DNA of 64,000 bases from an uncultured Spirochaetota bacterium (GCA_963835575.1 CAWIGG010000002.1:1152001-1216000); one strand, 5' to 3'. Positions 23,987 to 41,630 are shown, counted from the first letter of the stretch. Notes: a model not told the origin generated them from the letters alone. Program-made: numbers and translations.

Positions 23987-26584
23987 ATGAACCCGTTAAC
24001 GACAGCCAGCTCCGGTATTGCGGGGTTTGATAATATAATAAATTTTCTCCGTATGGGGGACAATGTAGTCTGGCAGGTCGATGAGATCAGCGATTATAAA
24101 AATTTCGCTGTGCCGTTCGTCCAGAACGCGATCAAAGAAAATAGAAGGATTGTCTATATCCGTTTTGCAAAACATCCTCCTATTGTTCCAGAGAATTTCA
24201 ATATTCCCGTATATGAACTGGATATGAGCAGCGGTTTTGAAGGCTTCACTTCTCATCTGCATAAAATCATTAAAGAAGAAGGAAGGGATGTCTATTATGT
24301 ATTTGACTGCCTTTCTGATCTTCTTTCAGCATGGGCAACAGATTTGATGATCGGTAATTTTTTCATGATCACCTGCCCTTATCTTTTTGAACTCAATACA
24401 ATCGCTTATTTCGCCCTTTTAAGGAATTATCATTCTTTTAAAACCATAGCCCGTATCCGCGACACGACACAGCTGCTCCTGGATGTCTATAACATCAAAT
24501 CCAAAATTTATATACACCCGCTTAAAGTATGGAACCGCTATACTCCAACCATGTTTCTGCCGCATCTGGGCGATAAGGACCGTTTTACGCCATTAAAAAA
24601 CAGCGTCGATGCGGCCAAGCTATTTTCTTATCTTTCCAGGAAAGGCATTGAAAACGCGACCAGAAACCTGGATTATTGGGACCGCCTCTTTTTAAAAGTC
24701 GGTGAAATGATTGAAAATAAGGTTTCCGGTAATGAAGAATTTGAAATGATCCAGCAAATCTGTAAAATTATGATAGGCAGGGATGACAGGGTCATTAATC
24801 TATTCAGTAAATATTTTTCTTTATCCGATCTACTCCAGATTAAATCCCGCCTGATCGGTACCGGATTCATCGGCGGAAAAGCAGTCGGAATGCTTTTAGC
24901 GCGCAATATTCTTCAAAAAGATACTTCAGAAGACTGGCAGCAGCTTCTCGAACCGCATGATTCCTTTTATATCGGCTCGGATGTATTTTACAGCTACATA
25001 GTCCAGAACGGCTGGTGGAAGATGCGGATGGAACAAAAAACTGAAGCAGGGTATTTTGATACCGCACATATACTGAAAGATAAGCTCCTGCATGGCGAGT
25101 TTCCCGAGGAAATCAGGGAGCAGTTCATACAGATGCTGGAATATTTCGGCCAATCGCCCATAATAGTCCGTTCCAGCAGCCTTCTTGAGGACAGCTTCGG
25201 CAACGCCTTCGCTGGAAAATACGAAAGCTTCTTCCTTGTCAATCAGGGAACGCCCGATGAAAGATACGCTCAATTTGTCGAGGCTGTCAGGCAGATATAC
25301 GCCAGCACAATGAATGACGATGCGCTGGCATACAGGCTTCAGAGAGGTCTGGCCTTTATGGATGAACAGATGGCGCTTCTGGTTCAGAGAGTGTCAGGTT
25401 CATACCACCAGAAATATTTCTTTCCCGATCTTGCCGGTGTCGCCATATCTTACAATACTTTTGTATGGAAGGAAAATATGGATCCGAAAGCAGGCATGCT
25501 CCGTCTTGTATACGGCCTGGGCACAAGGGCTGTCAACCGAGTGGAAAATGACTATCCACGCATTGTCGCGCTGGATATGCCGCTTTTAAAACCCCATTCC
25601 GGTATGGACAATACAAGGCTTTTTTCACAGCATGAAGTTGATCTGCTGAATATCAAGGAAAATAAACTTGAAACAATCCCGTTCTTCAGGCTTATAAAGG
25701 AAGAAACCCAGTTAAAACTGGACCTTATTGCCGCCAGGGACTATGAAACAACACAGAGGATCAGGGATTCCGGTTCGCATGACGAAGCCTGGATAATAAC
25801 ATTTGACGAACTCTTTACTAAAACAAATTACACGGCATTGATGCAGAAAATACTCAAAATACTGGAAAATAAATATAATTATCCCGTTGATATGGAATTC
25901 ACCGCAAATTTTACCCAGGACAATGCGCTTCAGATAAACGTTCTGCAGTGCCGTCCTCTTCAAACACAGGGAAACTATAAGAAAATCGATATACCCGCTG
26001 ATATAGCTGAAAACAAAATCATTTTTCAGACTGAGGGCAACTTTATGGGCGGCAGCATCAATCAGCCGATTAAACGGATTATATATGTTGAACCGCAAAA
26101 ATACGGTGATCTCAATCTTTCTCAAAAATATGATGTCGCGAGACTGATCGGCAAAATAAACCGGCAGATTCAGGATAAAAACACTCTCCCTGCCCTTCTC
26201 CTGGGGCCGGGAAGATGGGGATCAACAACGCCTTCGCTCGGTGTGCCTATCAGTTTTTCTGAAATTAACAAAATAGCCGTACTGGTGGAAGTAGCCCATA
26301 CCATAGCCGGGCTTATGCCCGAACTTTCCTTCGGAACTCATTTTTTCCAGGACCTGGTGGAAACGGGAATTTTTTATGCTGCCATTTTCCCTGATAAGAA
26401 TAATGTGATTTATAATATTGAGCAGTTGAAGAACAATCAGAACCTTGTCGGACAATTAGTACCGGACATGAAGAGCTATGAAGAAACAGTAAAAGTTTAT
26501 GATTTTAATGACGATATTCCTCTTCTTCTCGCAGACCTGACTTCGCAGAAATTAGTTCTATACTTTAAAGAAGCAGAGGAATAA
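23987..26584 (+). CDS. PEP/pyruvate-binding (PPDK_N ATP-grasp) domain protein; putative dikinase of unknown substrate
   Basis: IGGKAVG, IVRSSSLLEDSFGNAFAGKYES, MALLVQR, GLGTRAV, PVDMEF, LQCRPL; no PEP-binding barrel. Confidence 0.82.
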   Translation: MNPLTTASSGIAGFDNIINFLRMGDNVVWQVDEISDYKNFAVPFVQNAIKENRRIVYIRFAKHPPIVPENFNIPVYELDMSSGFEGFTSHLHKIIKEEGRDVYYVFDCLSDLLSAWATDLMIGNFFMITCPYLFELNTIAYFALLRNYHSFKTIARIRDTTQLLLDVYNIKSKIYIHPLKVWNRYTPTMFLPHLGDKDRFTPLKNSVDAAKLFSYLSRKGIENATRNLDYWDRLFLKVGEMIENKVSGNEEFEMIQQICKIMIGRDDRVINLFSKYFSLSDLLQIKSRLIGTGFIGGKAVGMLLARNILQKDTSEDWQQLLEPHDSFYIGSDVFYSYIVQNGWWKMRMEQKTEAGYFDTAHILKDKLLHGEFPEEIREQFIQMLEYFGQSPIIVRSSSLLEDSFGNAFAGKYESFFLVNQGTPDERYAQFVEAVRQIYASTMNDDALAYRLQRGLAFMDEQMALLVQRVSGSYHQKYFFPDLAGVAISYNTFVWKENMDPKAGMLRLVYGLGTRAVNRVENDYPRIVALDMPLLKPHSGMDNTRLFSQHEVDLLNIKENKLETIPFFRLIKEETQLKLDLIAARDYETTQRIRDSGSHDEAWIITFDELFTKTNYTALMQKILKILENKYNYPVDMEFTANFTQDNALQINVLQCRPLQTQGNYKKIDIPADIAENKIIFQTEGNFMGGSINQPIKRIIYVEPQKYGDLNLSQKYDVARLIGKINRQIQDKNTLPALLLGPGRWGSTTPSLGVPISFSEINKIAVLVEVAHTIAGLMPELSFGTHFFQDLVETGIFYAAIFPDKNNVIYNIEQLKNNQNLVGQLVPDMKSYEETVKVYDFNDDIPLLLADLTSQKLVLYFKEAEE

Positions 26585-26601
26585 CATGAGAAATATGATC
26601 T

Positions 26602-27696
26602 TTATTGTTCAAGAAATCCGAAAACAGGCTCGCCCGCTGCCGGATGCCATACGCTGTCTAATTCAGGCTGTATAAGCCTTATAGCGCCTTCCTCACTCGA
26701 TACGAAAAGCGTTTTACCTTTTTTTGCCGCCACCAGAGGTCTGAGCTTAACCCTGTCCGAGAGGGCCATAAAACCGCCGTCAAAGCCGATGATAAAAGCG
26801 AAAGGCCCATTCAGAAGAAGGCTCCCATAGACAATCCTGAGCTGTGTATAGAGCTGTTTCGATTCTTCATCCATAGAATCAATATCCTTCCAGAACGGCG
26901 AGGCAAAAATCTTCGCCACTATATCCCAGGGCAGATTATGCCTTCGTTTTAAAAGATCGACCGCATAGGCGACCACTTCGGTATCAGTTCTCATCGTGCA
27001 TTCATATCCATAACTTTCAAGATATCTCCGGTTGATTCCATAGGATGATATTTCACCGTTATGAACAACGGAATAATTCAGCATGGTAAAGGGATGAGCT
27101 CCGCCCCACCAGCCGGGAGTATTTGTCGGAAAGCGGCTGTGCGCGATCCATGTATGGGCCTCATATTCCTCAAGCCTGAAAAAATCACCCAGTTCATGCG
27201 CTTCGCCGACGCCTTTAAAGGCCCCCATATTTTTCCCGCTGGAAACCACGAACACACCGTCGATTTTTTTATTGATAAACATGACTTTCGATACTACATA
27301 ATCATCCGGCTTTTCATGGACCAGCCTAGCGTCGGAAACATGGCAGAAATACCTGAAAAAAAGCGGCGGTTTCGGAATCTTAGGATTCTTTCTGGTCGGT
27401 ATCTGGTCTTCATAGATAATATCAAAATTTTGCTTAATATAATCCTTCCCCTGCTCCATGGCATAGCTGTCGTCATACATCACATGCAGGGCATAAAAAT
27501 CCTTATATGTATCATAGAGGCCGTAAACGGCAAAGCCTCCGCCCAGACCGTTGCCCCTTTCCTTCAGGTGCTCTATTCCCTTGATGATATCATTGCCGTT
27601 TATTTTCTTCCCATCCTGATTGATAAATCCGATCAATCCGCAGCCTGATATATCCTTTTCGTCGTAAGGAATGGCATCGGCATAATTATATGACAT
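26602..27696 (-). CDS. Class II (Ntn) glutamine amidotransferase, GltB1/GlxB-like
   Basis: DISG-CGLIG nucleophile, ERGNGLGGGF, HSRFPTNT, AHPF, HNGEISSY, TDTEV, DRVKLRP; ATG 27696 preferred. Confidence 0.9.
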   Translation of the reverse strand: MSYNYADAIPYDEKDISGCGLIGFINQDGKKINGNDIIKGIEHLKERGNGLGGGFAVYGLYDTYKDFYALHVMYDDSYAMEQGKDYIKQNFDIIYEDQIPTRKNPKIPKPPLFFRYFCHVSDARLVHEKPDDYVVSKVMFINKKIDGVFVVSSGKNMGAFKGVGEAHELGDFFRLEEYEAHTWIAHSRFPTNTPGWWGGAHPFTMLNYSVVHNGEISSYGINRRYLESYGYECTMRTDTEVVAYAVDLLKRRHNLPWDIVAKIFASPFWKDIDSMDEESKQLYTQLRIVYGSLLLNGPFAFIIGFDGGFMALSDRVKLRPLVAAKKGKTLFVSSEEGAIRLIQPELDSVWHPAAGEPVFGFLEQ

Positions 27697-27778
27697 AATT
27701 TTATTCCCCTTTATATATCTCAATATAATATTATAAAAATAAAACACAATAAAAACAACTTTTAAAAAATAAAAACAG

Positions 27779-27815
27779 AGGCGGCAAGATTAATCTTACA
27801 AAATCACTGCCGCCT
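27779..27815. terminator. Second hairpin between GSIII and the amidotransferase gene
   Basis: AGGCGGCA...TGCCGCCT inverted repeat with T-rich flanks. Confidence 0.45.
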
Positions 27816-27834
27816 TTTATTATATTATTCCAGG

Positions 27835-27866
27835 CCAAAGGCGATATTGTTCAATATCGCCTTTGG
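27835..27866 (-). terminator. Hairpin immediately downstream of the GSIII gene
   Basis: CCAAAGGCGATATTG-tt-CAATATCGCCTTTGG. Confidence 0.65.
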
Positions 27867-27875
27867 AAATGTTTT

Positions 27876-30074
27876 TTAGTATATGAACAGCATTTCCCTG
27901 TATTTAGGAAGCGTCCAGTACTCATCGCTGGTTATCTCTTCAAGATGGTCAACAATATCCCTCAGTTCAAACATAACCGGTAATACTTTCTTGCAGTATT
28001 CATGGGCCAGATCTTCCATATCAGAAACAGATTTTACTCCGTTCAGATTTTCCTCAAGCTGTTTTATTTTATTCTGCAGGTCAGATATTTTAGCCGCATA
28101 ACCGTTTAAAAATTCAACCTGTGTTTTTGAAGAAGCTTTATTAAAGCCGTCAACACTTAAAGCGGAACCGATCGATTGCGCGACAGAATTTTGATATTTC
28201 AGTACCGAGGGAAGGATCATCGTTTTAGCCATCGTTAATGCCGTTTCGGCCTCAATATTGACTATCTTTGAATACTGCTCCAGGTAAATGTGATATCTCG
28301 ATTCAATTTCCCTTGCCGATAAAACCCCTGTTTTAGTAAAAATCTCCTTGTTTTTCTTTGACACCAGGTCTTTAAGTGAATCAGGTGTATTTTTCTTATT
28401 CGGCAGGCCTCTTTTCTCCGCTTCTTTTTCCCATTCGGGATCATAATTATTACCTTCAAACCGGATGGCTTTTGTTTCTTTAATCGCTGGAACAATTGTC
28501 TCCATTACCGATTTGTTTAAATCCATTCCCTTTTTCATATTCGCTTCAATTGTGTCGGCAAATTCATTCAGCATTGTGGCTATGACCGCATTGAGCGTAT
28601 AATTTGCCGCCGCGATGGATTGCGATGAGCCGACTGCCCTGAACTCGAATTTATTGCCTGTAAAGGCAAAAGGGGATGTTCTGTTCCTGTCCGTTGTGTC
28701 TTTGCTGATTACCGGCAGCTTGCTGAGGCCCAGGTCGATAATCTGCTTGTCATCGTAATCCTGTTTTTTATTAGTTTCGATGCAGTCCAGAATTTGCGTC
28801 AGCTGTTCGCCGAGAAACACGGAAATAATAGCCGGAGGAGCTTCGTTGGCCCCCAATCTGTGGTCATTTGCAGCGGAAGCAATCGAAGATCTCAGTAAAT
28901 CGGCGTATTTGAAAACACCCTTTATTGTGGCTATTAAGAATGTCAAAAACTGGAGGTTTTCATGCGGCGTATTACCCGGCTCCAGAAGATTATTGCCTTC
29001 GGAATCTGATAACGACCAGTTATTATGCTTACCCGAGCCATTGATGCCGGCAAAAGGTTTTTCATGGATCAGCAAAGCCAGGTTATGCCGCGCCGCTATC
29101 TTTTTCAAAGTCTCCATTACCAGCTGATTATGGTCCGTTGCCACATTACTGTCCTCAAAAATCGGCGCTATCTCAAATTGAGCGGGAGCCACTTCATTGT
29201 GTCTTGTTTTTGAAGGAATCCCCAGTTTAAAAAGCTCCGTGTCCACATCCTGCATAAACGCGATGATTCTTTCCCTGATGCTGCCGAAATAATGGTCTTC
29301 CATCTGCTGGCCTTTCGGAGAACTTGCGCCGAAAAGGGTGCGTCCGGTGAGAAGCAGGTCTGGTCTTCTGTTATAATAAGCCCTGTCTATGAGAAAATAT
29401 TCCTGTTCAGGTCCTACTGTTGAATATACCCTTGTGGCTATATCATTTTTAAAAAGCTTTAACACTCTAAGGGCCGCTTTGTTGATTGCCTCCATTGAAC
29501 GGAGAAGAGGGGTTTTTTTATCAAGAGCCTCACCAGTATAAGAGAGAAATATAGTCGGTACGCAAAGTGTAGCCCCGGTGGCATTCTCTATAAGGAAAAT
29601 CGGTGATGTCGGGTCCCAGGCTGTATAACCCCGGGCTTCAAATGTCGCTCTGATGCCGCCGCTCGGGAAGCTGGACGCGTCCGGTTCTCCCTGGCTCAGG
29701 TTTTTTCCGGAAAAACGGTTGATCGGCATACCTTCTTTATCAAAACTGAAAAAGCTGTCATGTTTTTCAGCGGTCAGGCCTGTCATAGGCTGGAACCAGT
29801 GTGTAAAATGGGTAGCGCCCTTGCTGATCGCCCATTCCTTAACGCCATGCGCTACTTCTTCCGCCAGCTGGTCATCAATTTTTCCGCCTGACTTGATAAT
29901 GTTTTTTAACTTCTGATAGGCTGAATAAGGCAGGAATTTCCTCATTGCCGTATCATTAAACACATTCTGCCCGAAGATATCCGCCGGAGAAATACCTTTA
30001 ACTGTTTCACCATAACGGTACTTCAGGCTATTTTTTTCCACTATTTCCTTGATGGCATCTTCTCGACTATTCAT
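27876..30074 (-). CDS. glnN: Glutamine synthetase type III
   Basis: GATHFTHWFQP, AEKHDSF, EPDASSFPSGG, HEKPFAGINGSGKHNNWS, DRNRTSPFAFTGNKFEFRA; 732 aa. Confidence 0.96.
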   Translation of the reverse strand: MNSREDAIKEIVEKNSLKYRYGETVKGISPADIFGQNVFNDTAMRKFLPYSAYQKLKNIIKSGGKIDDQLAEEVAHGVKEWAISKGATHFTHWFQPMTGLTAEKHDSFFSFDKEGMPINRFSGKNLSQGEPDASSFPSGGIRATFEARGYTAWDPTSPIFLIENATGATLCVPTIFLSYTGEALDKKTPLLRSMEAINKAALRVLKLFKNDIATRVYSTVGPEQEYFLIDRAYYNRRPDLLLTGRTLFGASSPKGQQMEDHYFGSIRERIIAFMQDVDTELFKLGIPSKTRHNEVAPAQFEIAPIFEDSNVATDHNQLVMETLKKIAARHNLALLIHEKPFAGINGSGKHNNWSLSDSEGNNLLEPGNTPHENLQFLTFLIATIKGVFKYADLLRSSIASAANDHRLGANEAPPAIISVFLGEQLTQILDCIETNKKQDYDDKQIIDLGLSKLPVISKDTTDRNRTSPFAFTGNKFEFRAVGSSQSIAAANYTLNAVIATMLNEFADTIEANMKKGMDLNKSVMETIVPAIKETKAIRFEGNNYDPEWEKEAEKRGLPNKKNTPDSLKDLVSKKNKEIFTKTGVLSAREIESRYHIYLEQYSKIVNIEAETALTMAKTMILPSVLKYQNSVAQSIGSALSVDGFNKASSKTQVEFLNGYAAKISDLQNKIKQLEENLNGVKSVSDMEDLAHEYCKKVLPVMFELRDIVDHLEEITSDEYWTLPKYREMLFIY

Positions 30075-30181
30075 TTTTATCTCCTTTTATTTTAATAATC
30101 AATCAAATATTATAAGGACAATTATTATAACAAAAATCATATAAAAACTCCAGAAAATGTTATAATTCAACCTTCTTTCCA

Positions 30182-30210
30182 TTGATAATTTTGATTGATT
30201 TTCATATACT
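30182..30210 (+). promoter_or_regulatory. Sigma-70-type promoter for glnE
   Basis: TTGATA-17 nt-TATACT. Confidence 0.55.
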
Positions 30211-30252
30211 ATTGCTGATCAAAACTAATACTTCTTATTTAAGGAAGCCGGT

Positions 30253-33200
30253 ATGTTCAATATACAGGAAGTTAAAAAACAGATCCTGCAATCAAGCGAT
30301 TATCTCAGGCTGTTGCTTGAAAATAATCCTGATCTCTGGAAGGAAATTTATACTTTCCTCTCTCAATCCGATGAAAAAGTTCCTCAGGAATATACAAATG
30401 ATTATTATTATAAAAAACACTCTTTTCCTAAGGTTGATGAAGATCCTGAAAAGATGTTTTTAAACATCCGGAAAATCAAAAATAAAGAATTAGCGATCAT
30501 AGCTTTTAAAGACTTTCTTTTTAATAATTCTGTTTCAATGACTCTTATTTTCCTGTCCAGACTGGCTGATTTTTGTATTGATTGGTCAATCCGCAGCGTT
30601 CTAAATATTATGCATGAAAAAAATTACATCGGCTATGATAAATTGAAAAATAACATAATGATCATCGGGATGGGTAAACTCGGCGGGAATGAACTGAATA
30701 TCAGTTCCGATATCGACCTTATCTTTCTTGGAAAAGATGAAATCATTCAGGATGATGCCTTCAGGAAGGAACTTGAAACATTTCTTACACATTTTCTTGA
30801 TTTCCTGAACCGTACATCTCAAGAAGGATTTCTATACCGTGTCGATATGAGGCTAAGGCCGGAAGGTGAAATCGGGCCTCTTATTATGGGTTTTCAAAAT
30901 GCGCTGGAATATTATAAAGAAAGAGGCCGTCAATGGGAATTGCAGGCAATGATAAAAAAAAGGCTGCTATGGGGAAATGATTTGCTATATCAAGAGTTTG
31001 TTTCATCAATGGATAAACTAATTTATCAGCATCACCAGCCTCAAAAGATCCTCTTTGATATCTGGAATATCAAAAATGAAATTGAAAAACAATTTTTGAA
31101 TAAAAATACTGAATTCAATATCAAGCTTTCTCCCGGCGGCATCCGGGATATTGAATTTATAATACAATTTCTACAGCTTATCCATGGTATTAGATATCCT
31201 GAAATAAGGAATGCTAATTCTCTTTCAACCCTCAATTCTTTAAAAACTTTCAATATAATTACACCGGATGAATTCAATACCCTGAATTCCAGTTATATAA
31301 TTTTAAGAAAAATAGAAAATATCCTTCAGCTCATAAATAATACATCAGTACATTCTCTACCTGGGAAAAAAGGAATAATAGAAAAAGTTTTCAAACCATG
31401 GAAGATTGAGGGGTTTGACTTTCCCAATGAAGATTATGAAATTGAATTTAAAAATAAAGTAAATACAATTATGTCGAATGTCAGGACCATTTTTACGGCT
31501 CTATTCGATGAAACGATCAGGTATATAAAATTAAAAGATAATCTCCTGTCCCAATATCAGGATATTCCCGGAGAATTACTGGAAGATCATTTTCTAAGAA
31601 TGGACAGCGAATATTTTCTCCGTTTTCAGGAAATGGATATTTACAAACACATAAAAATGATAGAAAAGCTTAATCTAAATAATCTCGTTGAACTGGAAAT
31701 CAACAAAAATAAAGAGGAAATATGGTCTCTGACTATTGTTGCCTTTGATTATTATTATGAATTTTCAAAAATAGCCGGTTTGATCTCGGCTAATTTTTTA
31801 AAGATACTCAGCGGCGAATCATATACATACGGTGAGTATTCTTCACAAAAAGATGAGAAAGAGGAACCATTCTACAGACGGAAAAAAAAGCAGATTTATT
31901 TCTTTTCATCAGAAAAAAAAGCACCGTCACTCATTTACAGAAGAAAGATCGTATGTTATTTAAAAGTACAAATGCTTGAAACTATTCAAAAAAACGCAAC
32001 CCATTTTGATAATATACTTCCTGACTGGGACCAGTTTAAAAAAGAATTGAATTATATTCTTCATTGTCTTGAAACAAATCAAACGAGAAAATCTGAAGAA
32101 TTTTTAAATAATAAAATTCTGAGCCTTATATCAAAACTGCCGATTACCGATATAAAGCCTCTTTCACCTGTCGAAATTGAAGTGGATAATGAGAGCAGCC
32201 GGCAATATACTATCCTGAATATTTACTCAAAAGACAGCTTTGCATTTCTATATACTTTTACTAATGTTTTGGCTTTGAGAAATTATTATATCTATAAAAT
32301 TGAGATAGATACTCAAGATGATAAAGCTTTTGACCGGCTGTTCATATTGACCCGGGATGGAAAAAAGATAATAGAGGCAAATAATATAGAAAATTTAAAA
32401 ATAGCCGTCGCATTCATAAAACAATACTCATCTCTATTACAAAATGCCGTTAATCCTGATAATGCGCTCCGTTATTTTGACGAGCTTCTTTCCAGAATAC
32501 TGGAATCAAGTGAGAAAAAGGAACTGCCGATTTTGGGTCAGCAGGATGTACAGGAAAAACTTGCCACTATTTTCGGCATAAGCGATTATTTCTGGGAAGA
32601 CTTCATCCGTGTGCAGTATACAGACATGCTGCCCATACTTAATGATCCATCAATAGAGTATTCCTTTTCAAAGAAAGAATTAATTGATCGTTATAATCAC
32701 ATCCATTTGCTAAATGAGCCGATGCAAACTGTTAACCTGGATGATTTTAATATACGGATCAATGAATTCAAAGACAGGGAAATGTTCCGCATCGATCTTC
32801 GGCAAATCTTAAAAAAGATCGAAATGATACAATTTTCTATAGAGCTGACAGAACTGGCCGAAGCGGTTATTGAACTTGCCGTAAAAAAGATAGAAATTGA
32901 ATTGCTTAAAAAATATTCTTTCCGGCAAATTCCGCCCTGGGCCGTATTTGGTCTGGGCAAGTTAGGCGGCAGGGAGTTGGGTTATGCATCCGATATCGAG
33001 GTTATGCTGGTCTATGATAACCCCGGACAATTAAAGGATGCAATTGAAATTGATTCCTATTTTGAAAAAATGATGCAGATGCTTATTCATACGATCCATT
33101 CTAAACGGGAAGGTATTTTTGAAATCGATCTCAATCTGCGCCCATACGGTAAATCTGGAAATTTAGCCGTCTCTAAAGCCAATTTTAAAGAATATTTTTC

Positions 33201-33813
33201 ATTAAAGGGACGGGCATATTATTTTGAAAAACAGGCCCTTGTGAAACTGCGCCCGATAGTGAGCAATGAATCCGGTTATTATTTATTTCAGGAAATTGTT
33301 AATTACCGTGATCTTTTTGTCTTCAGCGGGGAAAAGCCTGATATTGAAGCCCTGCTCAATCTCAGGGAAAAACAAATCCAGACCTATATTAAAAATTCTC
33401 AGGATATTAATATCAAATATTCCCGGGGATGCCTTGTTGATATCGAATACCTTGTCCAAAGCTTTCAAATCGTTTATGGAAAAATTTATCCCGGCTTAAA
33501 AAATCCTTCTACAGTGGATGCTATTGACAGCCTATATGAATGCAAAATCATCGATGATTTTGAGCAGAAAACGCTTAAAGAAAGCTATCTTTTTTATAGA
33601 AACTTGATAAATATCCTCCGGATGGTAAAAGGCAACGCGAAGGACTTGACTATTTATCCGGAAAATACCATTGAATACGATTACCTGGTCAAAAGAAGCT
33701 TTTTTGTGGGAATTATTGAAAAAGAAGTGAAAGAATTACTCGCTGACAAAATAAGAGAATTCAGGAAATCCATCATATCAATTCTAGACATTGAAATGAG
33801 TAAACTTAAATAA
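30253..33813 (+). CDS. glnE: Glutamine synthetase adenylyltransferase/adenylyl-removing enzyme with internal GlnD-like ACT domains
   Basis: Two nucleotidyltransferase modules (GMGKLGGNELNISSDIDL, RVDMRLRPEG, GGIRDIEF; GLGKLGGRELGYASDIE, EIDLNLRPYG, GCLVDIEY) separated by an ACT-like insert. Confidence 0.9.
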   Translation: MFNIQEVKKQILQSSDYLRLLLENNPDLWKEIYTFLSQSDEKVPQEYTNDYYYKKHSFPKVDEDPEKMFLNIRKIKNKELAIIAFKDFLFNNSVSMTLIFLSRLADFCIDWSIRSVLNIMHEKNYIGYDKLKNNIMIIGMGKLGGNELNISSDIDLIFLGKDEIIQDDAFRKELETFLTHFLDFLNRTSQEGFLYRVDMRLRPEGEIGPLIMGFQNALEYYKERGRQWELQAMIKKRLLWGNDLLYQEFVSSMDKLIYQHHQPQKILFDIWNIKNEIEKQFLNKNTEFNIKLSPGGIRDIEFIIQFLQLIHGIRYPEIRNANSLSTLNSLKTFNIITPDEFNTLNSSYIILRKIENILQLINNTSVHSLPGKKGIIEKVFKPWKIEGFDFPNEDYEIEFKNKVNTIMSNVRTIFTALFDETIRYIKLKDNLLSQYQDIPGELLEDHFLRMDSEYFLRFQEMDIYKHIKMIEKLNLNNLVELEINKNKEEIWSLTIVAFDYYYEFSKIAGLISANFLKILSGESYTYGEYSSQKDEKEEPFYRRKKKQIYFFSSEKKAPSLIYRRKIVCYLKVQMLETIQKNATHFDNILPDWDQFKKELNYILHCLETNQTRKSEEFLNNKILSLISKLPITDIKPLSPVEIEVDNESSRQYTILNIYSKDSFAFLYTFTNVLALRNYYIYKIEIDTQDDKAFDRLFILTRDGKKIIEANNIENLKIAVAFIKQYSSLLQNAVNPDNALRYFDELLSRILESSEKKELPILGQQDVQEKLATIFGISDYFWEDFIRVQYTDMLPILNDPSIEYSFSKKELIDRYNHIHLLNEPMQTVNLDDFNIRINEFKDREMFRIDLRQILKKIEMIQFSIELTELAEAVIELAVKKIEIELLKKYSFRQIPPWAVFGLGKLGGRELGYASDIEVMLVYDNPGQLKDAIEIDSYFEKMMQMLIHTIHSKREGIFEIDLNLRPYGKSGNLAVSKANFKEYFSLKGRAYYFEKQALVKLRPIVSNESGYYLFQEIVNYRDLFVFSGEKPDIEALLNLREKQIQTYIKNSQDINIKYSRGCLVDIEYLVQSFQIVYGKIYPGLKNPSTVDAIDSLYECKIIDDFEQKTLKESYLFYRNLINILRMVKGNAKDLTIYPENTIEYDYLVKRSFFVGIIEKEVKELLADKIREFRKSIISILDIEMSKLK

Positions 33814-33815
33814 TT

Positions 33816-33848
33816 AAAGGCGGCATTATTAAATGCCGCCTTTTTTTT
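33816..33848. terminator. Bidirectional terminator between convergent glnE and glnA
   Basis: AAAGGCGGCATT-atta-AATGCCGCCTTTTTTTT. Confidence 0.8.
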
Positions 33849-33853
33849 ATCAT

Positions 33854-35272
33854 TTAAACATCATAGTAAAGGAAAAACTCATAAGGGTGCGGCCTCTGCT
33901 GAACAGCCCGCACTTCATTTACCATCTTGTAATCTATCCAGATTTCGATTACATCTTTTGTAAAAACATCGCCTTTAAGAAGCCATTCATGATCATTTTT
34001 CAAGTTATTCAGGGCTTCTTCCAATGAACCTGGAACATTTCCGACTTTTCCGCGTTCTTCAGGGGGCAGGTCATAAATATTTTTATCCAGAGGTTCACCC
34101 GGGTCAATTTTATTCTGGATTCCATCCAACCCGGCCATAAGCATCGCGGCAAAAGCAAGATAAGGATTGCAGCTCGGGTCAGGAGTCCTGAATTCCAGCC
34201 TTTTTGCAGCGGGACTGCTGGAGTACATAGGTATTCTGACTGCCGCGCTTCTATTACGGGCTGAATAAGCCAGGTTTATCGGCGCTTCAAACCCCGGAAC
34301 AAGCCTCTTGTAAGAATTCATCGTCGGGCATGTAATAGCAACTAAAGCATTAGCATGCTTTAAAATACCACCGATATACCAGAGTCCTTCCTGAGAAAAT
34401 CCGGCATATTTATTACCGACAAAGATGTTCTTGTCTTTTTTCCATATGCTCTGGTGGCAATGCATTCCACTGCCGTTATCGCCGAACAAAGGTTTAGGCA
34501 TAAAAGTAACTGTTTTGCCGTTTTTAACAGCGACATTCTTAGTCACATATTTATAAAGAAGCACCTGGTCTGCCATTTTAACAAGATCGGCAAATCGCAT
34601 ATCAATTTCAGCCTGACCCGCTGTTGCAACTTCATGGTGATGTGCCTCAATTCGGATACCGACCTTTTCCAGCATCTGTACCATTTCACTGCGGATATCC
34701 TGCAGAGAATCTGATGGCGGAACAGGGAAATAACCCTCTTTATGCCTGATCTTATATCCTTTATTTCCGCCTTCTTCGATCCTGCCGGTATTCCATACAC
34801 CCTCGTCAGAATCAATATAATAGTATCCTTCTTTTGCATTCTGGCCATATCGTACATCATCAAAAATAAAAAACTCAAGTTCGGGACCAAAATAAACTGT
34901 ATCGCCTATCCCCGTGCTTTTGAGAAAATTCACAGCTTTCTTTGCTATGTGCCTTGGATCTCTTGTGTAATCCTGAAGAGTAATCGGATCCTTAATATCC
35001 GCAATCATTATCAATGTCGGATATTTTGCAAAAGGATCAACTACTGCCGTTGATGGGTCTGGCATAAGAAGCATATCCGATTCATTGATCCCCTGCCAAC
35101 CGCGGATGGAAGATCCATCAAAACCCAAACCTTCTTCAAAAGGACTTTCATCCTTAAATTCAGATACGGGATAAGTACAGTGCTGCCACATTCCCGGGAA
35201 ATCCATAAAACGGAGATCAATCTGGACAATGCCTTCTTTTTTAATCAGTTCCAATACACTTTTAGCATCCAT
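33854..35272 (-). CDS. glnA: Glutamine synthetase type I (beta, adenylylatable)
   Basis: [39 protein letters not shown], adenylylation-site motif [11 protein letters not shown]. Confidence 0.97.
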
Positions 35273-35307
35273 ATATTATTACCTCCTTTTATATACTGGT
35301 ATATAAG

Positions 35308-35324
35308 TGCAACTCTTATGCCAA
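35308..35324 (-). promoter_or_regulatory. Sigma-54 (-24/-12) promoter of glnA
   Basis: Minus strand TTGGCAT-AAGAG-TTGCA, exact GG-N10-GC spacing, about 35 nt upstream of the glnA ATG. Confidence 0.85.
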
Positions 35325-35481
35325 TTAATCTATCATAAGCAATAAATTTATATCTTATTATATGACAAATATTTATATAGTTTTATTAATTCAATTATTG
35401 TCTTTAGTAAAATATTATTTGATTATATATTATTCATCTTTTATAATAGTGGTTAAATAATAGACATTTTGAGGTAAAACT

Positions 35482-37557
35482 ATGGATAATAATTATACTA
35501 AAGAATTGGAAGAGAAAATAAAACGGCTCAAGCTGATCCAATATCTCACCATCGCTATGAATGAAACTGCGGATTCACAGGATCTTTTAAAAATGATGCT
35601 GGATAAATGTATCACCCTGACAGGCGCTGACAGCGGATCCATAATGATTAAAGATCCCAATTCCAAACACCTCCGTTATGAAGTCTTTAAAGGCCTTGAT
35701 GAAGAAATGGTCATAAAGACACCTATTATTGTAGGAGAGGGGCTGACAGGCACTGTTTTTCAAGACGGCATCCCGCGCCTTGTCAATGATGTCGCCATGG
35801 AGCCGGTGTATATCCCTGTCCGTAAGGATATACAATCCGAGCTGGCCGTACCTCTCAGCGTGCATGGGAAAGTGATTGGAGTTGTCAATGTAGACAGCGC
35901 CGGGAAAAACGCCTTTACAGAGGACGATGTTGAGCTTCTTCAAACTATTTCAAACCAGGCCGCTCAAATACTAATAAGAACTAATCTTTACCAGGAACTG
36001 GAAAGAAAAATCAAATTTAAAGATCTCCTCCTCGACATAGCGCAGAGCATAGAAAAGATATTCGAATTAACGGATTCCTTCGAGATTGTCATGAAAAAGC
36101 TGGCGGACAGCTTCGGCATTTTCAGGGGAATGCTGGTCTTATTCGAAAAGGAAGAACCCAATAAACTCTCTGTATTCAGCGCGTATAATATTACTGATGA
36201 AGAGATGTCCCGCGGAATTTATCAAGTTGGTGAAGGCGTTGTCGGAAAAGTTGTGGAAACAGGAAAACCTATTTCCATCCCTGATATTATTAAAGATGAT
36301 TCTTTTCTGAACCGTCTTCAAATTAAAAGAGATAAAAACAGCCCAACCTCTTTTATAGCAGTCCCGATTAAAATTGAAGGTATTGTTGTCGGAGTTATGG
36401 CGATCGAAAAACATTTTGAAAATGAAAATATTCTTGAAGACGAAGAAGATATGATGACGCTCATCGCAAATATAATCGCCAATAAAGTAAAAGCATGGGA
36501 AAGGATTTTTAAGGAAAAGGAAAACCTGATCGCTGAAAATCTGAACCTTAAAAAGGAATTATTAAAAAATTTTGCTGTGGGCAATATCATCGGCAAGAAT
36601 AAAAGCATGATATCGGTATTCGAATTGATCAATACGGTTTCTGACAGCAATTCATCAATATTGATCCTTGGTGAAAGCGGCACCGGAAAAGAATTAGTCG
36701 CGCAGGCGCTTCATGTCGGCAGCGGCAGGAAGGATGCCCCGTTTGTCAGCATCAATTGCGCTTCCATACCTGAAAATCTTCTTGAATCGGAACTTTTCGG
36801 TTATAAAAAGGGCTCTTTTACCGGGGCAATCAGCGACAAAAAAGGTAAATTTCAGCTGGCTAACGGCGGGACTGTTTTTCTGGATGAAATCGGCGATATG
36901 CCCCTTTACCTTCAGGCAAAACTTCTCCGCGCCATCCAGGAGAGGGAAATCGAACCGCTCGGCAGCGAAGTAAAAGTGAAAATAGACATACGCATTGTCT
37001 CGGCAACTAATAAAGACCTGGATAAATTGATAAAAGACGGGAAATTCCGCGAAGACCTTTATTACCGTTTAAATGTTGTCGAAATACTCATTCCTCCTCT
37101 CCGTGAAAGAAAGGACGATATACCGTTATTAGTGAACCATTTCCTTAAAAAATACGCCCAAAGGGACAGTAAAAATGTCCATGGGATCTCCCAGGAAGCC
37201 CTAAGGCTTCTCCAGAGCTATAATTGGCCCGGGAACGTCCGTGAACTGGAGAATATCATTGAAAGGGCTGTTCTGCTCTGCCGCACTCAGACAATAGAAG
37301 TAAATAACCTTCCTCCTTTCCTGATGGATATTGAGGAAGTGCCGGATATTCATATCAGTAAATGGATAGAGGGTTTTATAAAAAATCCTTCTTTCAGCGG
37401 CAAGCTTTATGAAAAAATCATCGGTCATGTGGAAAAGGAATTGATAGCCAAATCGCTTATTTTTAATAACAGAAATAAAGTGAAAACTTCTGATTTTCTC
37501 GGGATTAACCGGAACACGCTGAGAAGTAAAATGGAAGATTATAACATTAAGATGTAA
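35482..37557 (+). CDS. Sigma-54-dependent activator (GAF-GAF-AAA+-Fis HTH), NifA-like
   Basis: Two GAF domains, GESGTGKE, ESELFGYKKGSFTGA, FLDEIGD, WPGNVRELEN, LGINRNTLRSK. Confidence 0.93.
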   Translation: MDNNYTKELEEKIKRLKLIQYLTIAMNETADSQDLLKMMLDKCITLTGADSGSIMIKDPNSKHLRYEVFKGLDEEMVIKTPIIVGEGLTGTVFQDGIPRLVNDVAMEPVYIPVRKDIQSELAVPLSVHGKVIGVVNVDSAGKNAFTEDDVELLQTISNQAAQILIRTNLYQELERKIKFKDLLLDIAQSIEKIFELTDSFEIVMKKLADSFGIFRGMLVLFEKEEPNKLSVFSAYNITDEEMSRGIYQVGEGVVGKVVETGKPISIPDIIKDDSFLNRLQIKRDKNSPTSFIAVPIKIEGIVVGVMAIEKHFENENILEDEEDMMTLIANIIANKVKAWERIFKEKENLIAENLNLKKELLKNFAVGNIIGKNKSMISVFELINTVSDSNSSILILGESGTGKELVAQALHVGSGRKDAPFVSINCASIPENLLESELFGYKKGSFTGAISDKKGKFQLANGGTVFLDEIGDMPLYLQAKLLRAIQEREIEPLGSEVKVKIDIRIVSATNKDLDKLIKDGKFREDLYYRLNVVEILIPPLRERKDDIPLLVNHFLKKYAQRDSKNVHGISQEALRLLQSYNWPGNVRELENIIERAVLLCRTQTIEVNNLPPFLMDIEEVPDIHISKWIEGFIKNPSFSGKLYEKIIGHVEKELIAKSLIFNNRNKVKTSDFLGINRNTLRSKMEDYNIKM

Positions 37558-38349: not shown

Positions 38350-39869
38350 GTAACTATCCAGCCGCATATTTAATAGCGGAGCCGTTCAACGCGTCAATAA
38401 GGGCTTGATAAACACTGACGCCCATCTTTTTTACTGTAGATATATAACCCCTGATTCTGCAAAAGGCAGCCGCTCCATTCCAGCTTCTGAATGTACCTGA
38501 TATTTTCTGCTGGACTTTTATCATTCTGATATCCCGTTCCGCCAAATTGTTGCTGAATGGAACATCTTTTTCCCGCATAAATAAAAGGACAGATTCTTTA
38601 TATTTTCTTAATCGGTCTAATAGGCATAAAACCTTGCCCCGCTTTTTTCTGCCGCGTTTAACAAGTCCTTCCGGCTTTTCAGGCGTTGGATTTACAGCAA
38701 ATCCTTTCGCGATGATCCGGTCATATTCCGTATCATATTCTATAATCCTTTCCGCCGGTATTGGAAAACTTGCCTCTTTATCATTCTTAATCCTTATAAG
38801 AAGATTACCCATCTCCTTAGCCCATTCCTGACCCATTTCCTCATGTATCCAGATTAGCTCTCTCAAATGGTGTACATTACACAATCCATGACGGCATAAG
38901 AATTCCAGATAACTTTTCCATCCATCGTGGATAATAATACCGGTAAATCTTGTGAGAATGTCCATCGCACGCATCGCCTCTGTGCCGCGTTTGTCATGAG
39001 AAAAATAATAGGTAAAACGTTCATTCGAGGCAACATGGAGCCATTTTAATAACCCTTTTATCCGAATACCGGTTTCATCACAGTGAAGAACCACTTCTTT
39101 TAGTATCAGTTCTATGACTTTCTGTTCATACTCTTCTAATTTATTGTAGGTCTCCCGGATAAATCCTTCAATCGTTGCCTTGCTGAGCGGCACTCCCAAT
39201 AAACATTCGGCGTATTCCGAAAGCCTTTCATAGGGTATCAACCCATATGTTTTCATATAGACCAGATGCGCTTTAATGTTTTTTCCATACTGTGCCTTAT
39301 TGGTTATGCCTTCCGGAAACTCCGCCGTTACTCTCGCACCGCAATGCGGACAATCTTTTACTTCCGAGCGATGTTCGGTAACTTCCACTTTTATCGGAGG
39401 TATATCGAACACCTGCCTTCTTTCCGTCCGCTTAACTGATTCGGAACTTAAATCAATTCCACAACAGGAACATTTTTCAACCTGATGTTCTATGATCTTA
39501 TCAGGGCTTTCTACTTTCTTCAGAGTATTTCCCTTATGTCCAAACTGGCCGCCTTGTTTTTTACCGCTCTTTTTCCGTAAATTCTTTACTGTATTTTGGA
39601 ATGGATTATCGGAAGACGGCGGTTTATTGCTGTTATGGCTGTCCTTATTAAGCTGTTCTTCCAATTTCTTAATCTTTTCCGCTTGTCTTTGAATGATTAA
39701 ACCCTGCTCCTTTATCTGGTTTTGTAAATCAGCAATGATGCCTTCAAATCGTTTTAAGCAGGCCGCACAGTCTTTTTCTCTTCTATCTTCATTCATGCTA
39801 TAGAATAGCATGGTTTCATGCTCAATGCAAATATTTCATGTGACTATTTTTTAGTGGCTGGATAGTTAC
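38350..39869 (-). mobile_element. IS66-family insertion sequence (single-ORF type)
   Basis: Perfect 14-bp TIR GTAACTATCCAGCC (38350-38363) / GGCTGGATAGTTAC (39856-39869); 8-bp target duplication CATTTTTT (38342-38349, 39870-39877). Confidence 0.95.
38354..39811 (-). CDS. IS66 transposase
   Basis: NSNKPPSSD, GGQFGHKG, zinc finger, HCDETG, CNVHHLREL, NNLAERDIR..KV.QKISG. Confidence 0.95.
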   Translation of the reverse strand: MLFYSMNEDRREKDCAACLKRFEGIIADLQNQIKEQGLIIQRQAEKIKKLEEQLNKDSHNSNKPPSSDNPFQNTVKNLRKKSGKKQGGQFGHKGNTLKKVESPDKIIEHQVEKCSCCGIDLSSESVKRTERRQVFDIPPIKVEVTEHRSEVKDCPHCGARVTAEFPEGITNKAQYGKNIKAHLVYMKTYGLIPYERLSEYAECLLGVPLSKATIEGFIRETYNKLEEYEQKVIELILKEVVLHCDETGIRIKGLLKWLHVASNERFTYYFSHDKRGTEAMRAMDILTRFTGIIIHDGWKSYLEFLCRHGLCNVHHLRELIWIHEEMGQEWAKEMGNLLIRIKNDKEASFPIPAERIIEYDTEYDRIIAKGFAVNPTPEKPEGLVKRGRKKRGKVLCLLDRLRKYKESVLLFMREKDVPFSNNLAERDIRMIKVQQKISGTFRSWNGAAAFCRIRGYISTVKKMGVSVYQALIDALNGSAIKYAAG

Positions 39870-39875
39870 CATTTT

Positions 39876-41630
39876 TTAAGGTATTTTAAAGACAAGCAAA
39901 GTCATATCGTCCCACTGGTCAACACCGCTTGACCATATGTCCAATTCCCTGAAAACAACATTGACGATAGTAGAGGCATTAAGTGAAGAGTATTCTTTAA
40001 TAATCTTTTTTAAGCGCTCAATTCCGAAATCATTTCCTTTATTATCAACTGTATCAACAATCCCGTCTGTTAAGCAGAAAACAACATCTCCCGAATCCAG
40101 CTGCATGCGCGAAGAAACGTATTTTTCGGTTTTAGAAATTCCAAGAGGAATTCCTTTTGTGGCCAGTGATAAAAACTGGTTTTTTGAAGGCTTATAAATA
40201 TATTGAAGGTTATGACCGGCATTTGAATATTCAAGGATTTTCTGGTTCAAATCCAGCGTACAGTAAAACATCGTTACAAACATCCCTACCCTTGAATCAT
40301 CAACAAGAATTTCATTGGAATACTCCAGAAGCTTATTCGGTTCTCTTGTATGATAAGCATACGCTTTGGCGACACTTCTTGAAACAGCCATATATAGCGA
40401 TGCCGGCAGGCCTTTACCGGAAACATCTCCTATAACAAAGCCGATTCTATTGGGCGTAATCGGATATATATCATAGAAATCGCCGCCGACAACTTCGGCA
40501 GCTTTCATTTTAGCGTAAATCGATATATTTTTAAAATTGCTGAAATCATCAATAAGAAGGGCATTCTGAAGGGTCTTCATGATATCAATTTCCTTTCTTA
40601 TCTTTTCATGCTCGATCCGGTCATTATAACTGAGAATGCTTTCATAGGTATGGCCTACCTGATTCGCTATCGTTTGCAGGGTTTTTATCATTTCCGGGGT
40701 ATACCTGTTGTTCTTATTCGGTTCTGAGATATTAATAACCCCGATAGATATATTTTTCAACTTAATAGGCGCGCAGATAAAACTGTTGTTTTTATACCGG
40801 AAGCGTTTATTCCTTCCAAGCCCGATTTTCTCTATATCATTCGCGTAAAGGGTTTTTCCCTGTTTCATCGTTTTGCTTGATATCTTTTCTATATCCAGAC
40901 TATGCTCCATTTTTCCCACAACTTCTTCAGGCATTCCGACCGCGCTTTCAATGTAAAGATTTCCAGTTTTTTCATTAATGAACATGATTGAAACCCGGCG
41001 AGAATAAAAAACCTTTGAAATTAAATCCACTATTTTTTTGAACAGATCTTTTTTGTCATATATCAGATTCGTGAGATTGCTGATTTGATAAAGGTATTCC
41101 AGCTCTTTAGCCCTGCTCTGCAAAGCTTTATAGAGAAGGGCATTCGCGATTGCCGTTGCCGCCTGCTCGGCAAACTGCTTTAAGAGCACAACATCATCAT
41201 CTGTAAAAATATCTTTTGCCGGATTCATTACTTCAATCACGCCGATCGCCTTTTCATTATGAATAAGCGGCATTGCCAGAAGGTTTCTTGTTTTTAAATT
41301 TGTTTTTTCATCTACAGCTTTATAAAACCTTCTATCATTCTGAGCGTTATAAACTATAACGTGCTGTTTGGTTTCCGCGGCATAACCGGCAATACCTTTG
41401 CCTTTTGGAACAACTACATCGTAGAGCGCGTCCACATTTTCACCGAAAGCCGCTTCAAAAAAGAGATTTCCTGTATCCGAATCAACCAGAAGAATTGAAG
41501 CTCCCTCGGCTCTTAATAGTATGCCGGCATAATGAGAGATATCATTGAGAATACTGCGGACATCTTCGATTGAATTTATTTTTCTATTAATGTCCAGAAC
41601 TGCCTGCAAATCCTTGATATTGAGCGCCAT
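39876..41630 (-). CDS. GAF-GAF-PP2C (RsbU/SpoIIE-like) serine phosphatase
   Basis: Two GAF domains, VGGDFYD, GDVSGKG, NAGHN, TDGI, DDMT. Confidence 0.93.
   Translation of the reverse strand: MALNIKDLQAVLDINRKINSIEDVRSILNDISHYAGILLRAEGASILLVDSDTGNLFFEAAFGENVDALYDVVVPKGKGIAGYAAETKQHVIVYNAQNDRRFYKAVDEKTNLKTRNLLAMPLIHNEKAIGVIEVMNPAKDIFTDDDVVLLKQFAEQAATAIANALLYKALQSRAKELEYLYQISNLTNLIYDKKDLFKKIVDLISKVFYSRRVSIMFINEKTGNLYIESAVGMPEEVVGKMEHSLDIEKISSKTMKQGKTLYANDIEKIGLGRNKRFRYKNNSFICAPIKLKNISIGVINISEPNKNNRYTPEMIKTLQTIANQVGHTYESILSYNDRIEHEKIRKEIDIMKTLQNALLIDDFSNFKNISIYAKMKAAEVVGGDFYDIYPITPNRIGFVIGDVSGKGLPASLYMAVSRSVAKAYAYHTREPNKLLEYSNEILVDDSRVGMFVTMFYCTLDLNQKILEYSNAGHNLQYIYKPSKNQFLSLATKGIPLGISKTEKYVSSRMQLDSGDVVFCLTDGIVDTVDNKGNDFGIERLKKIIKEYSSLNASTIVNVVFRELDIWSSGVDQWDDMTLLVFKIP

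Follow-up and report, generated by a model that had tools for sequence, protein, structure and literature searches.

The six genes at positions 23987 to 37557 of a 64,000-nucleotide stretch of DNA (the window) from an uncultured Spirochaetota bacterium (GCA_963835575.1 CAWIGG010000002.1:1152001-1216000) probably form a loose ammonium-assimilation cluster around a sigma-54 activator of the EbpA type, which likely takes the place of NtrBC in a genome that also encodes PII and GlnD. The activator gene is divergent from glnA, which encodes a type I glutamine synthetase (GSI), and the adjoining adenylyltransferase gene glnE encodes a protein that carries the ACT pair of GlnD. A preliminary description of the window had read these genes as possibly an island in which metabolite sensors are built into the effectors and PII, GlnD and NtrBC are dispensed with. 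The names borne by close protein homologs point to Spirochaetota as well. The present survey covers 41 related genomes, among which the genome of the window (G000) is 4.39 Mb in size and 94% complete.

Organization and conservation of the gene block

Profile matches bear out the places and families assigned to the six contiguous open reading frames (PPDK_N, a GltB1-like class II glutamine amidotransferase, type III glutamine synthetase (GSIII), GlnE with an ACT-like match, GSI, and a GAF-GAF-AAA+-HTH protein), but not the notion of a single unit. The genes lie on strands + - - + - +, and hairpin terminator-like sites are found between GSIII and gltB1 (27835-27866) and, on both strands, between the convergent glnE and glnA (33816-33843). 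The block therefore comprises several transcription units, and one operon for all six genes is ruled out. Linkage of all six genes, which had been expected to be conserved, is complete only in G000, that is, in 1 of the 41 genomes. The block of G006 contains five of the six (activator, glnA, glnE, GSIII and gltB1, followed by the remaining split glutamate synthase genes), and G001-G004 contain four, with other genes in between.

Identity of the activator

The activator (35482..37557, + strand, 691 residues) is assigned as an ortholog of Leptospira EbpA on the basis of profiles and reciprocal best matching. Its identity with the GAF-GAF activator of L. interrogans is 44.6% over 691 residues, the helix LGINRNTL is common to both, and in a quick tree the two fall in one clade (SH-aLRT 99) apart from the other activators of the genome. 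According to a review (PMC12655853), with which PMC5243855 agrees, L. interrogans has two activators, and the one called EbpA contains a GAF pair and is needed for amtB transcription; the name is adopted here for that reason. A phylum-wide search gave matches over the GAF pair (32-39% identity) in all 80 f15 genomes, a family in which the named records are Leptospira. Full-length orthologs occur in 28 of the 41 genomes; in the 12 members of family f6 both activator and PII are missing, and G038 has PII with no activator detected. A search of the ESM Atlas with the activator returned generic sigma-54 activator clusters.

The activator adjoins an assimilation gene in 21 of the 27 genomes examined (the 28 less G021), being divergent from glnA in 13, from GSIII in 4 and from gltB in 2, and lying upstream of amtB-glnK-glnA in 2. 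Nitrogen genes are also nearby at 7 of 20 more distant activator loci. Gene neighbourhood, the sequence motif described below and orthology agree in supporting the earlier proposal that the GAF-GAF protein is a nitrogen activator. An assignment as NifA was rejected, since the TIGR01817 score is 484 bits against a cut-off of 529, the protein has two GAF domains rather than one, and sites of the NifA consensus TGT-N10-ACA are lacking; a scan upstream of 15 genes turned up no sites of either the NifA or the NtrC type.

An NtrC ortholog, missing from the window, was not found in the 94% complete genome either: no activator encoded there scores above the cut-off for NtrC or for NtrX, and four receiver-type sigma-54 activators in G000 are neither above a cut-off nor adjacent to nitrogen genes. 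The sole test for NtrB, made on one neighbouring kinase, gave no match at 1e-30. The sigma factor gene rpoN is present. Judged from sequence, replacement of NtrBC by the EbpA-type activator in G000 is likely.

The pathway resembles the Leptospira EbpA-RpoN pathway (LIC_10132; Hu et al. 2017, as cited in PMC12655853 and PMC5243855) in having two GAF domains followed by AAA+ and HTH domains, in the recognition helix, and in amtB lying behind a sigma-54 promoter, which is predicted here; the palindrome described below precedes amtB in one Leptospira-type genome, G135. It differs in that the activator gene is divergent from glnA, that the predicted regulon includes glnA, gdhA and glnK-glnD, and that GlnE is present, none having been found in the five Leptospira-like genomes searched. 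In two Leptospira-type genomes a stand-alone ACT protein of 203-205 residues resembling the C-terminus of GlnD is encoded ~4-5 kb from ebpA (L075:12107-12724, L076:1809-2420).

Promoters, enhancer palindrome and predicted regulon

The exact -24/-12 promoter seen before glnA is real. The site, TGGCATAAGAGTTGCA (35308-35323, - strand), lies ~50 nt before glnA and is kept in all five relatives examined; strict matches number 17 across the 4.39 Mb of the genome, this one included. High-scoring sigma-54 sites precede 18 of 19 amtB genes and each of the 11 glnA genes that head a unit; scores before glnE, gltB1, glnD and the dikinase-like gene are low, with few exceptions.

A Gibbs search of 36 upstream regions returned the 17-bp palindrome TGaTTAA-n3-TTAAtCA with a motif score of 384, compared with 208 ± 5 in 12 dinucleotide shuffles, and the same consensus was obtained from 14 regions excluding G000 and its six closest relatives. 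When this independent matrix, trained without G000 and those relatives, was run over the 181 sigma-54-like sites of G000, the five top-ranked sites were those of gdhA, an unassigned site, glnA, amtB-glnK-glnD and amtB2-glnK2, after which the score falls from 20.0 to 14.4. Before glnA, two predicted enhancer sites lie at 35420-35436 (site 1, 14.2 bits, ~112 nt upstream of the -24 element) and 35450-35466 (site 2, 12.5 bits, 30 nt from site 1), and in four distant genomes strong palindrome sites stand before a glnA, gdhA or GSIII gene that adjoins the activator. Position and co-occurrence indicate that the activator likely binds this palindrome. Hu et al. 2017 reportedly mapped the EbpA binding site, and their work and that of Zhang et al. 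2018 may already have defined it.

Site 1 overlaps, and site 2 comes after, a sigma-70-type promoter of the activator gene (TTGATT-17-TATAAT, 35419..35447, + strand), which is one of 70 such matches in the region, shuffles giving 46, and whose surroundings are conserved among relatives. NtrC represses its own synthesis through sites that overlap its promoter, and this likeness, together with the site overlap, suggests that the activator may repress its own sigma-70 promoter. The wider arrangement also recalls enteric NtrB-NtrC and glnAp2, with paired 17-bp palindromes ~30 bp apart that lie 110-145 nt ahead of the sigma-54 promoter of glnA, with glnA and glnK-amtB for targets, and with sites overlapping a sigma-70 promoter, whereas the receiver domain and NtrB are lacking, the site sequence is different, and the input would be through the GAF domains of a one-component protein. 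Of all enhancer pairs predicted in the genome, that of gdhA (C2:636800) is the strongest, and gdhA would therefore be induced by nitrogen limitation, a pattern that differs from that of enteric gdhA.

Several observations weigh against this account of the activator and its regulon. The activator has no neighbouring nitrogen gene in 6 of the 27 relatives, and the divergent gltB genes of G013 and G017 are without a sigma-54 site. Among five Leptospira-like amtB promoters with a sigma-54 site, one (that of G135) has a strong palindrome match and the other four have none. The palindrome is AT-rich, with 405 sites of at least 9 bits genome-wide, and a loose pattern has nine matches in the window against 2.2 expected, nine being reached in 1 of 100 shuffles. 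The second-ranked combination of enhancer and promoter, at C2:678281, has no sense open reading frame behind it.

The C2:678281 locus lies outside the window on the minus strand; here a strict sigma-54 match, accompanied by two strong enhancer sites (15.3 and 12.3 bits), is directed antisense into a gene of 565 residues. A search for sense open reading frames of at least 90 residues at this locus found none, and it is a candidate nitrogen-regulated antisense or small RNA.

PII and GlnD in the genome

Independence of PII and GlnD had been deduced from their absence, and neither is absent. G000 has three PII genes above the Pfam cut-off and a full-length GlnD of 882 residues, which covers model positions 15-842 of 850 with its nucleotidyltransferase, HD and ACT parts (418 bits, short of the cut-off of 519). 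GlnD and one PII are encoded by an amtB-glnK-glnD operon (C5:80624-85045), which shares with glnA its type of sigma-54 site and enhancer. A second PII gene sits behind another amtB (amtB2-glnK2); both amtB-linked PII proteins have Tyr51. Genome-wide searches place no glnB/glnK or glnD in the window, as had been stated, and the absence is an effect of the window only. All six relatives with ACT-bearing GlnE (ACT-GlnE) likewise have GlnD and PII, with glnD in three pieces in G009 (57% complete).

The third PII of G000 (C4:894819-895133, L003) is of divergent sequence and without Tyr51; its gene is divergent from genes that we read, from their sequences, as encoding a PTS-IIA-like protein and a membrane protein. 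Frames of ~630-650 residues with a PII-like end occur beside further PII genes in G001, G002, G004, G006 and G009 (e.g. L055:5896-7797).

GlnE and its ACT pair

GlnE (30253..33813, + strand, 1186 residues) is composed of an N-terminal module that is adenylyl-removing (AR)-like and has the motif SDID, a GlnD-type ACT pair, and a C-terminal module with the motif SDIE that is adenylylating by position. The ACT domains of the preliminary description are corroborated by profile comparison, according to which the insert at residues 437-719 (31561..32409, + strand) corresponds to the linker, ACT1 and ACT2 of GlnD (hhalign probability 99.8, E-value 2.6e-29, 231 columns) and also matches TIGR01693 and PRK05092. 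The likeness is detected by profiles only; plain BLAST comparison of the insert with GlnD of G000 is not significant. A search for related loci with GlnE returned none. Both catalytic motifs are intact (GKLGGNELNISSDID at 141 and GKLGGRELGYASDIE at 902), and the GlnE equivalog cut-off is not reached (412 versus 487). The first module is nearer to 1v4a (178 versus 98 bits); 1v4a and 3k7d we take to be the AR and adenylyltransferase (AT) structures of E. coli GlnE.

The putative substrate, GSI (33854..35272, - strand, 472 residues), scores above the TIGR00653 cut-off and has its adenylylation site at Tyr400 within NIYDL, a motif that the pattern used picks up in 14 of 15 GSI sequences. Of the 41 genomes, the 18 with GSI are exactly those with GlnE. 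Like canonical GlnE (E. coli, 1v4a and 3k7d; H. seropedicae), the protein has two nucleotidyltransferase modules with GKLGGxEL..SDxD/E motifs and is found with a Tyr-bearing GSI (18 of 18 genomes). It differs from canonical GlnE in ~290 extra residues, comprising the GlnD linker and two ACT domains, and in D-x-E in the second module, and its family includes permuted and one-module forms.

The ACT module is widespread, being present in 143 of the 150 best GlnE representatives. Of these 143, 52 have the order found in the window, 73 are permuted with ACT first, 16 have a single catalytic module and 2 are fragments; in the 141 representatives that hold both, the ACT module precedes the second module. 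Named taxa with ACT-GlnE (7 of 20 looked up were named by taxon) are Spirochaetia, Anaerolineae, Calditrichota, Margulisbacteria, Abditibacteriales and Nitrospirota. Literature on ACT-bearing GlnE, or on the other architectures described here, was not found by title and abstract opening, and ACT-GlnE is a widespread and apparently unstudied variant. Three further features of these proteins were noted: one-module ACT-ACT-nucleotidyltransferase proteins of ~740 residues (P0228, P0253 and 14 others); the GlnE of G139, which is divided over two frames (L126:6540-10352), the break falling after the ACT pair and before the second module; and the composition of glnE in the window, 34% G+C compared with 41-44% in the neighbouring nitrogen genes.

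Among 401 spirochaete genomes, GlnE was found in 49, in the ACT form in 31, in the ordinary form in 17 and as a partial sequence in 1. Seven short GlnEs were classed as ordinary by length (944-1024 residues) and by having no insert match, and G166, G120 and G068 were confirmed as the ACT form. For GlnD counts the genome with partial GlnE (G151) was left out and G025 and G009 were added from the 41-genome set; weak TIGR01693 matches were disregarded where they fell on the insert or on frames of 450-520 residues covering no more than model positions 328-558. On this basis GlnD is present in 8 of 32 ACT-GlnE genomes, compared with 11 of 18 genomes with ordinary GlnE. Outside family f1, GlnD was not detectable in 24 of 25 ACT-GlnE spirochaetes. 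PII was found in 19 of the 21 ACT-GlnE genomes searched; the other two, G069 and G139 (98% and 95% complete), have neither GlnD nor PII. These two are also without the activator, so that the complete circuit without a relay is seen in no genome.

According to PMC11190351, which cites Zhang 2010, the response of GlnD to glutamine depends on its ACT domains. At the level of the family, where GlnD is mostly absent beside ACT-GlnE, the distribution supports a built-in glutamine sensor in ACT-GlnE, and to this extent the idea of a sensor within GlnE stands; absence of the relay does not, given the GlnD and PII of G000. Counted by family, GlnD is found in 2 of 14 with ACT-GlnE versus 6 of 8 with ordinary GlnE (Fisher p 0.008), which points the same way. 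Four points count on the other side. Related genomes are not independent, and the Fisher p is therefore an overstatement. Ordinary GlnE also occurs without GlnD (0 of 6 genomes of family f7 have it, and G059 is a further case). Glutamine is sensed directly, and independently of PII, by GlnEs that have no ACT domains in H. seropedicae and S. coelicolor, as stated in bioRxiv 10.64898/2026.09.02.748916, in which the word ACT is absent. Finally, the second module is not clearly AT-like in sequence (98 bits to the AR structure versus 90 to the AT structure).

Input signal of the activator

The more conserved GAF domain of the activator, GAF2, has its closest structures in Aquifex Nlh1/Nlh2 and the NifA GAF domain (4g3k, 4g3v, 9qq6, 8jrc), 9qq6 being presumably NifA of A. 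vinelandii. In the alignment, F275 of GAF2 falls at the position of NifA F119, and it is kept in 43 of 47 orthologs together with a GEGxxGxV motif. The activator thus resembles NifA/AnfA and Nlh1/Nlh2 in GAF2 and in retaining the F119 equivalent; it is set apart from them by the extra N-terminal GAF1, by a score below TIGR01817 and by a site other than TGT-N10-ACA. The substitution F119S abolishes 2-oxoglutarate binding by A. vinelandii NifA (PMC9866876), and direct sensing of 2-oxoglutarate by the GAF domain, as originally suggested, may be retained to the extent of this aligned residue. PII targets the GAF domains of NifA/AnfA in A. brasilense and R. palustris (PMC3854208, PMC12093980).

One reading would have both effectors sense directly, 2-oxoglutarate through GAF2 and glutamine through the ACT pair, with PII and GlnD serving only AmtB gating and other targets, which would leave the control of glutamine synthetase and of transcription independent of PII despite its presence; it appears rather doubtful. 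The conserved F275 with its GEGxxGxV motif, the scarcity of GlnD among ACT-GlnE spirochaetes outside f1, and the loss of PII as well in G069 and G139 are consistent with it. So is the occurrence of the activator without GlnD, for example in family f7 and in G014 and G018, whose amtB-linked PII is without Tyr51. However, all 28 activator-bearing genomes of the survey have PII, glnK-glnD is within the predicted regulon, PII controls NifA/AnfA GAF domains in the diazotrophs just cited, and the two genomes without PII are also those without the activator. GlnD is, moreover, kept in the absence of GSI or GlnE in G008, G013, G017 and three of four Leptospira-type genomes, which indicates further targets for GlnD, with the activator as one candidate.

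A canonical relay, in which GlnD and PII control both GlnE and the activator by direct PII binding and the ACT pair has lost ligand sensing in this lineage and serves as a PII dock or as a spacer between the modules, seems less plausible still. All seven ACT-GlnE genomes of family f1 keep GlnD and a PII with Tyr51, and some ACT1 consensus glycines are replaced in GlnE of the window (Y502, F515), as would suit such a role. The conserved ACT aspartates are nevertheless kept (D499, D661, D694), the insert is 60-71% identical across f1, and the ACT-GlnE family thrives without GlnD.

The PPDK-like protein and other genes of the block

The first gene of the block encodes an uncharacterised ATP-grasp protein of 865 residues (23987..26584, + strand) with a PPDK_N domain at 294-673, an N-terminal domain for which no Pfam match was obtained, and a C-terminal domain with His785, a residue conserved in 7 of 7 related sequences. 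Phosphoenolpyruvate (PEP) synthase and PPDK were rejected as identities, since PPDK_N alone is matched, model scores are far below cut-offs and the three-domain architecture is not complete. The protein shares the PPDK_N ATP-grasp domain and a conserved C-terminal histidine with PEP synthase/PPDK and rifampin phosphotransferase-type dikinases, and differs from them in that only ~110-330 residues align, no PEP-utiliser C-terminal domain is matched, an extra N-terminal domain is present, and the gene is tied to gdhA. The PPDK-like gene and gdhA occur in exactly the same 7 of 41 genomes, and in 4 of 6 related loci the former lies directly upstream of the latter. By distribution and gene order the protein is best read as a partner of GdhA; ATP-dependent modification or control of GdhA is a guess at its reaction.

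The proposed extra layer of control by the dikinase in the GlnE and activator circuit is contradicted by this distribution. A single dedicated and conserved island of six genes, in which the dikinase modifies glutamine synthetase or GlnE, is very improbable and largely refuted: the genes are adjacent in G000 and five of the six in G006, but the dikinase-like gene was found in none of the six relatives with ACT-GlnE, follows gdhA one-to-one, has no sigma-54 site or enhancer before it, and is present in G005, which is without GSI and GlnE, where it lies tail-to-tail with gltB1 inside the gdhA-glt cluster.

The GltB1-type subunit of the split glutamate synthase, a class II glutamine amidotransferase (26602..27747, - strand), has its likely start at ATG 27696, giving 364 residues. 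The remaining glt subunits lie at G000:C2:638516-642733 behind gdhA (gdhA-glt stretch C2:636939-642733), and the whole string is intact in G006 and G012; gltB1 has therefore been split from its operon in G000. GSIII (27876..30074, - strand, 732 residues, a profile match) is preceded in G000 by a weak sigma-54-like site and no enhancer; it was not found in the five relatives searched and is present in G006.

Beyond the block, a GAF-GAF-SpoIIE phosphatase gene (39876-41630) stands in synteny with the activator gene in G001-G004, G006 and G009, and such a gene is near the activator in some Leptospira-like genomes. An IS66 transposase gene (38354-39811) lies between pgeF and this gene, the two being adjacent in relatives, and a second transposase gene is located at 57264-58319.

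Proposed mechanism and implications

On the basis of synteny, motif and orthology, we propose that under nitrogen limitation the activator would bind paired 17-bp palindromes and open the sigma-54 promoters of glnA, gdhA, amtB-glnK-glnD and amtB2-glnK2 while repressing its own sigma-70 promoter; transcription of gdhA would read through to gltB3-B2 if these are co-transcribed. The signal would enter at GAF2. Direct binding of 2-oxoglutarate and binding of PII are nearly tied as the form it might take, the former slightly ahead and each short of an even chance, and what remains falls to both together or to another ligand. GlnE, whose domains are evident and whose function is predicted from them, would adenylylate Tyr400 of GSI, and the ACT pair may bind glutamine and gate the adjacent adenylylating module. 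If so, GlnD would not be strictly needed for GSI adenylylation, and in G000 the GlnD/PII relay would run beside the ACT route of GlnE. The PPDK-like protein may be an ATP-dependent partner of glutamate dehydrogenase whose gene entered the block through rearrangement of the gdhA-glt cluster.

A broader generalization can be offered only tentatively, and is itself unlikely to hold in full: that in spirochaetes and several little-studied phyla the sensors lie inside the effectors, with GlnE-ACT reading glutamine and so allowing most lineages to drop GlnD and some to drop PII, and with GAF2 of EbpA reading 2-oxoglutarate in a phylum-wide, one-component replacement of NtrBC that acts through a TGATTAA-n3-TTAATCA enhancer.

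The analysis predicts a binding site and a regulon for EbpA-type activators throughout Spirochaetota and renders the input of the activator testable through one residue (F275) and one partner (GlnK). Because G000 has both routes, a single organism supplies all the parts for a side-by-side reconstitution. Most GlnEs in the spirochaetes sampled carry the sensor module of GlnD, mostly without GlnD itself, and this distribution of ACT-GlnE suggests that one of the most thoroughly studied signalling cascades of bacteria has a shortcut.

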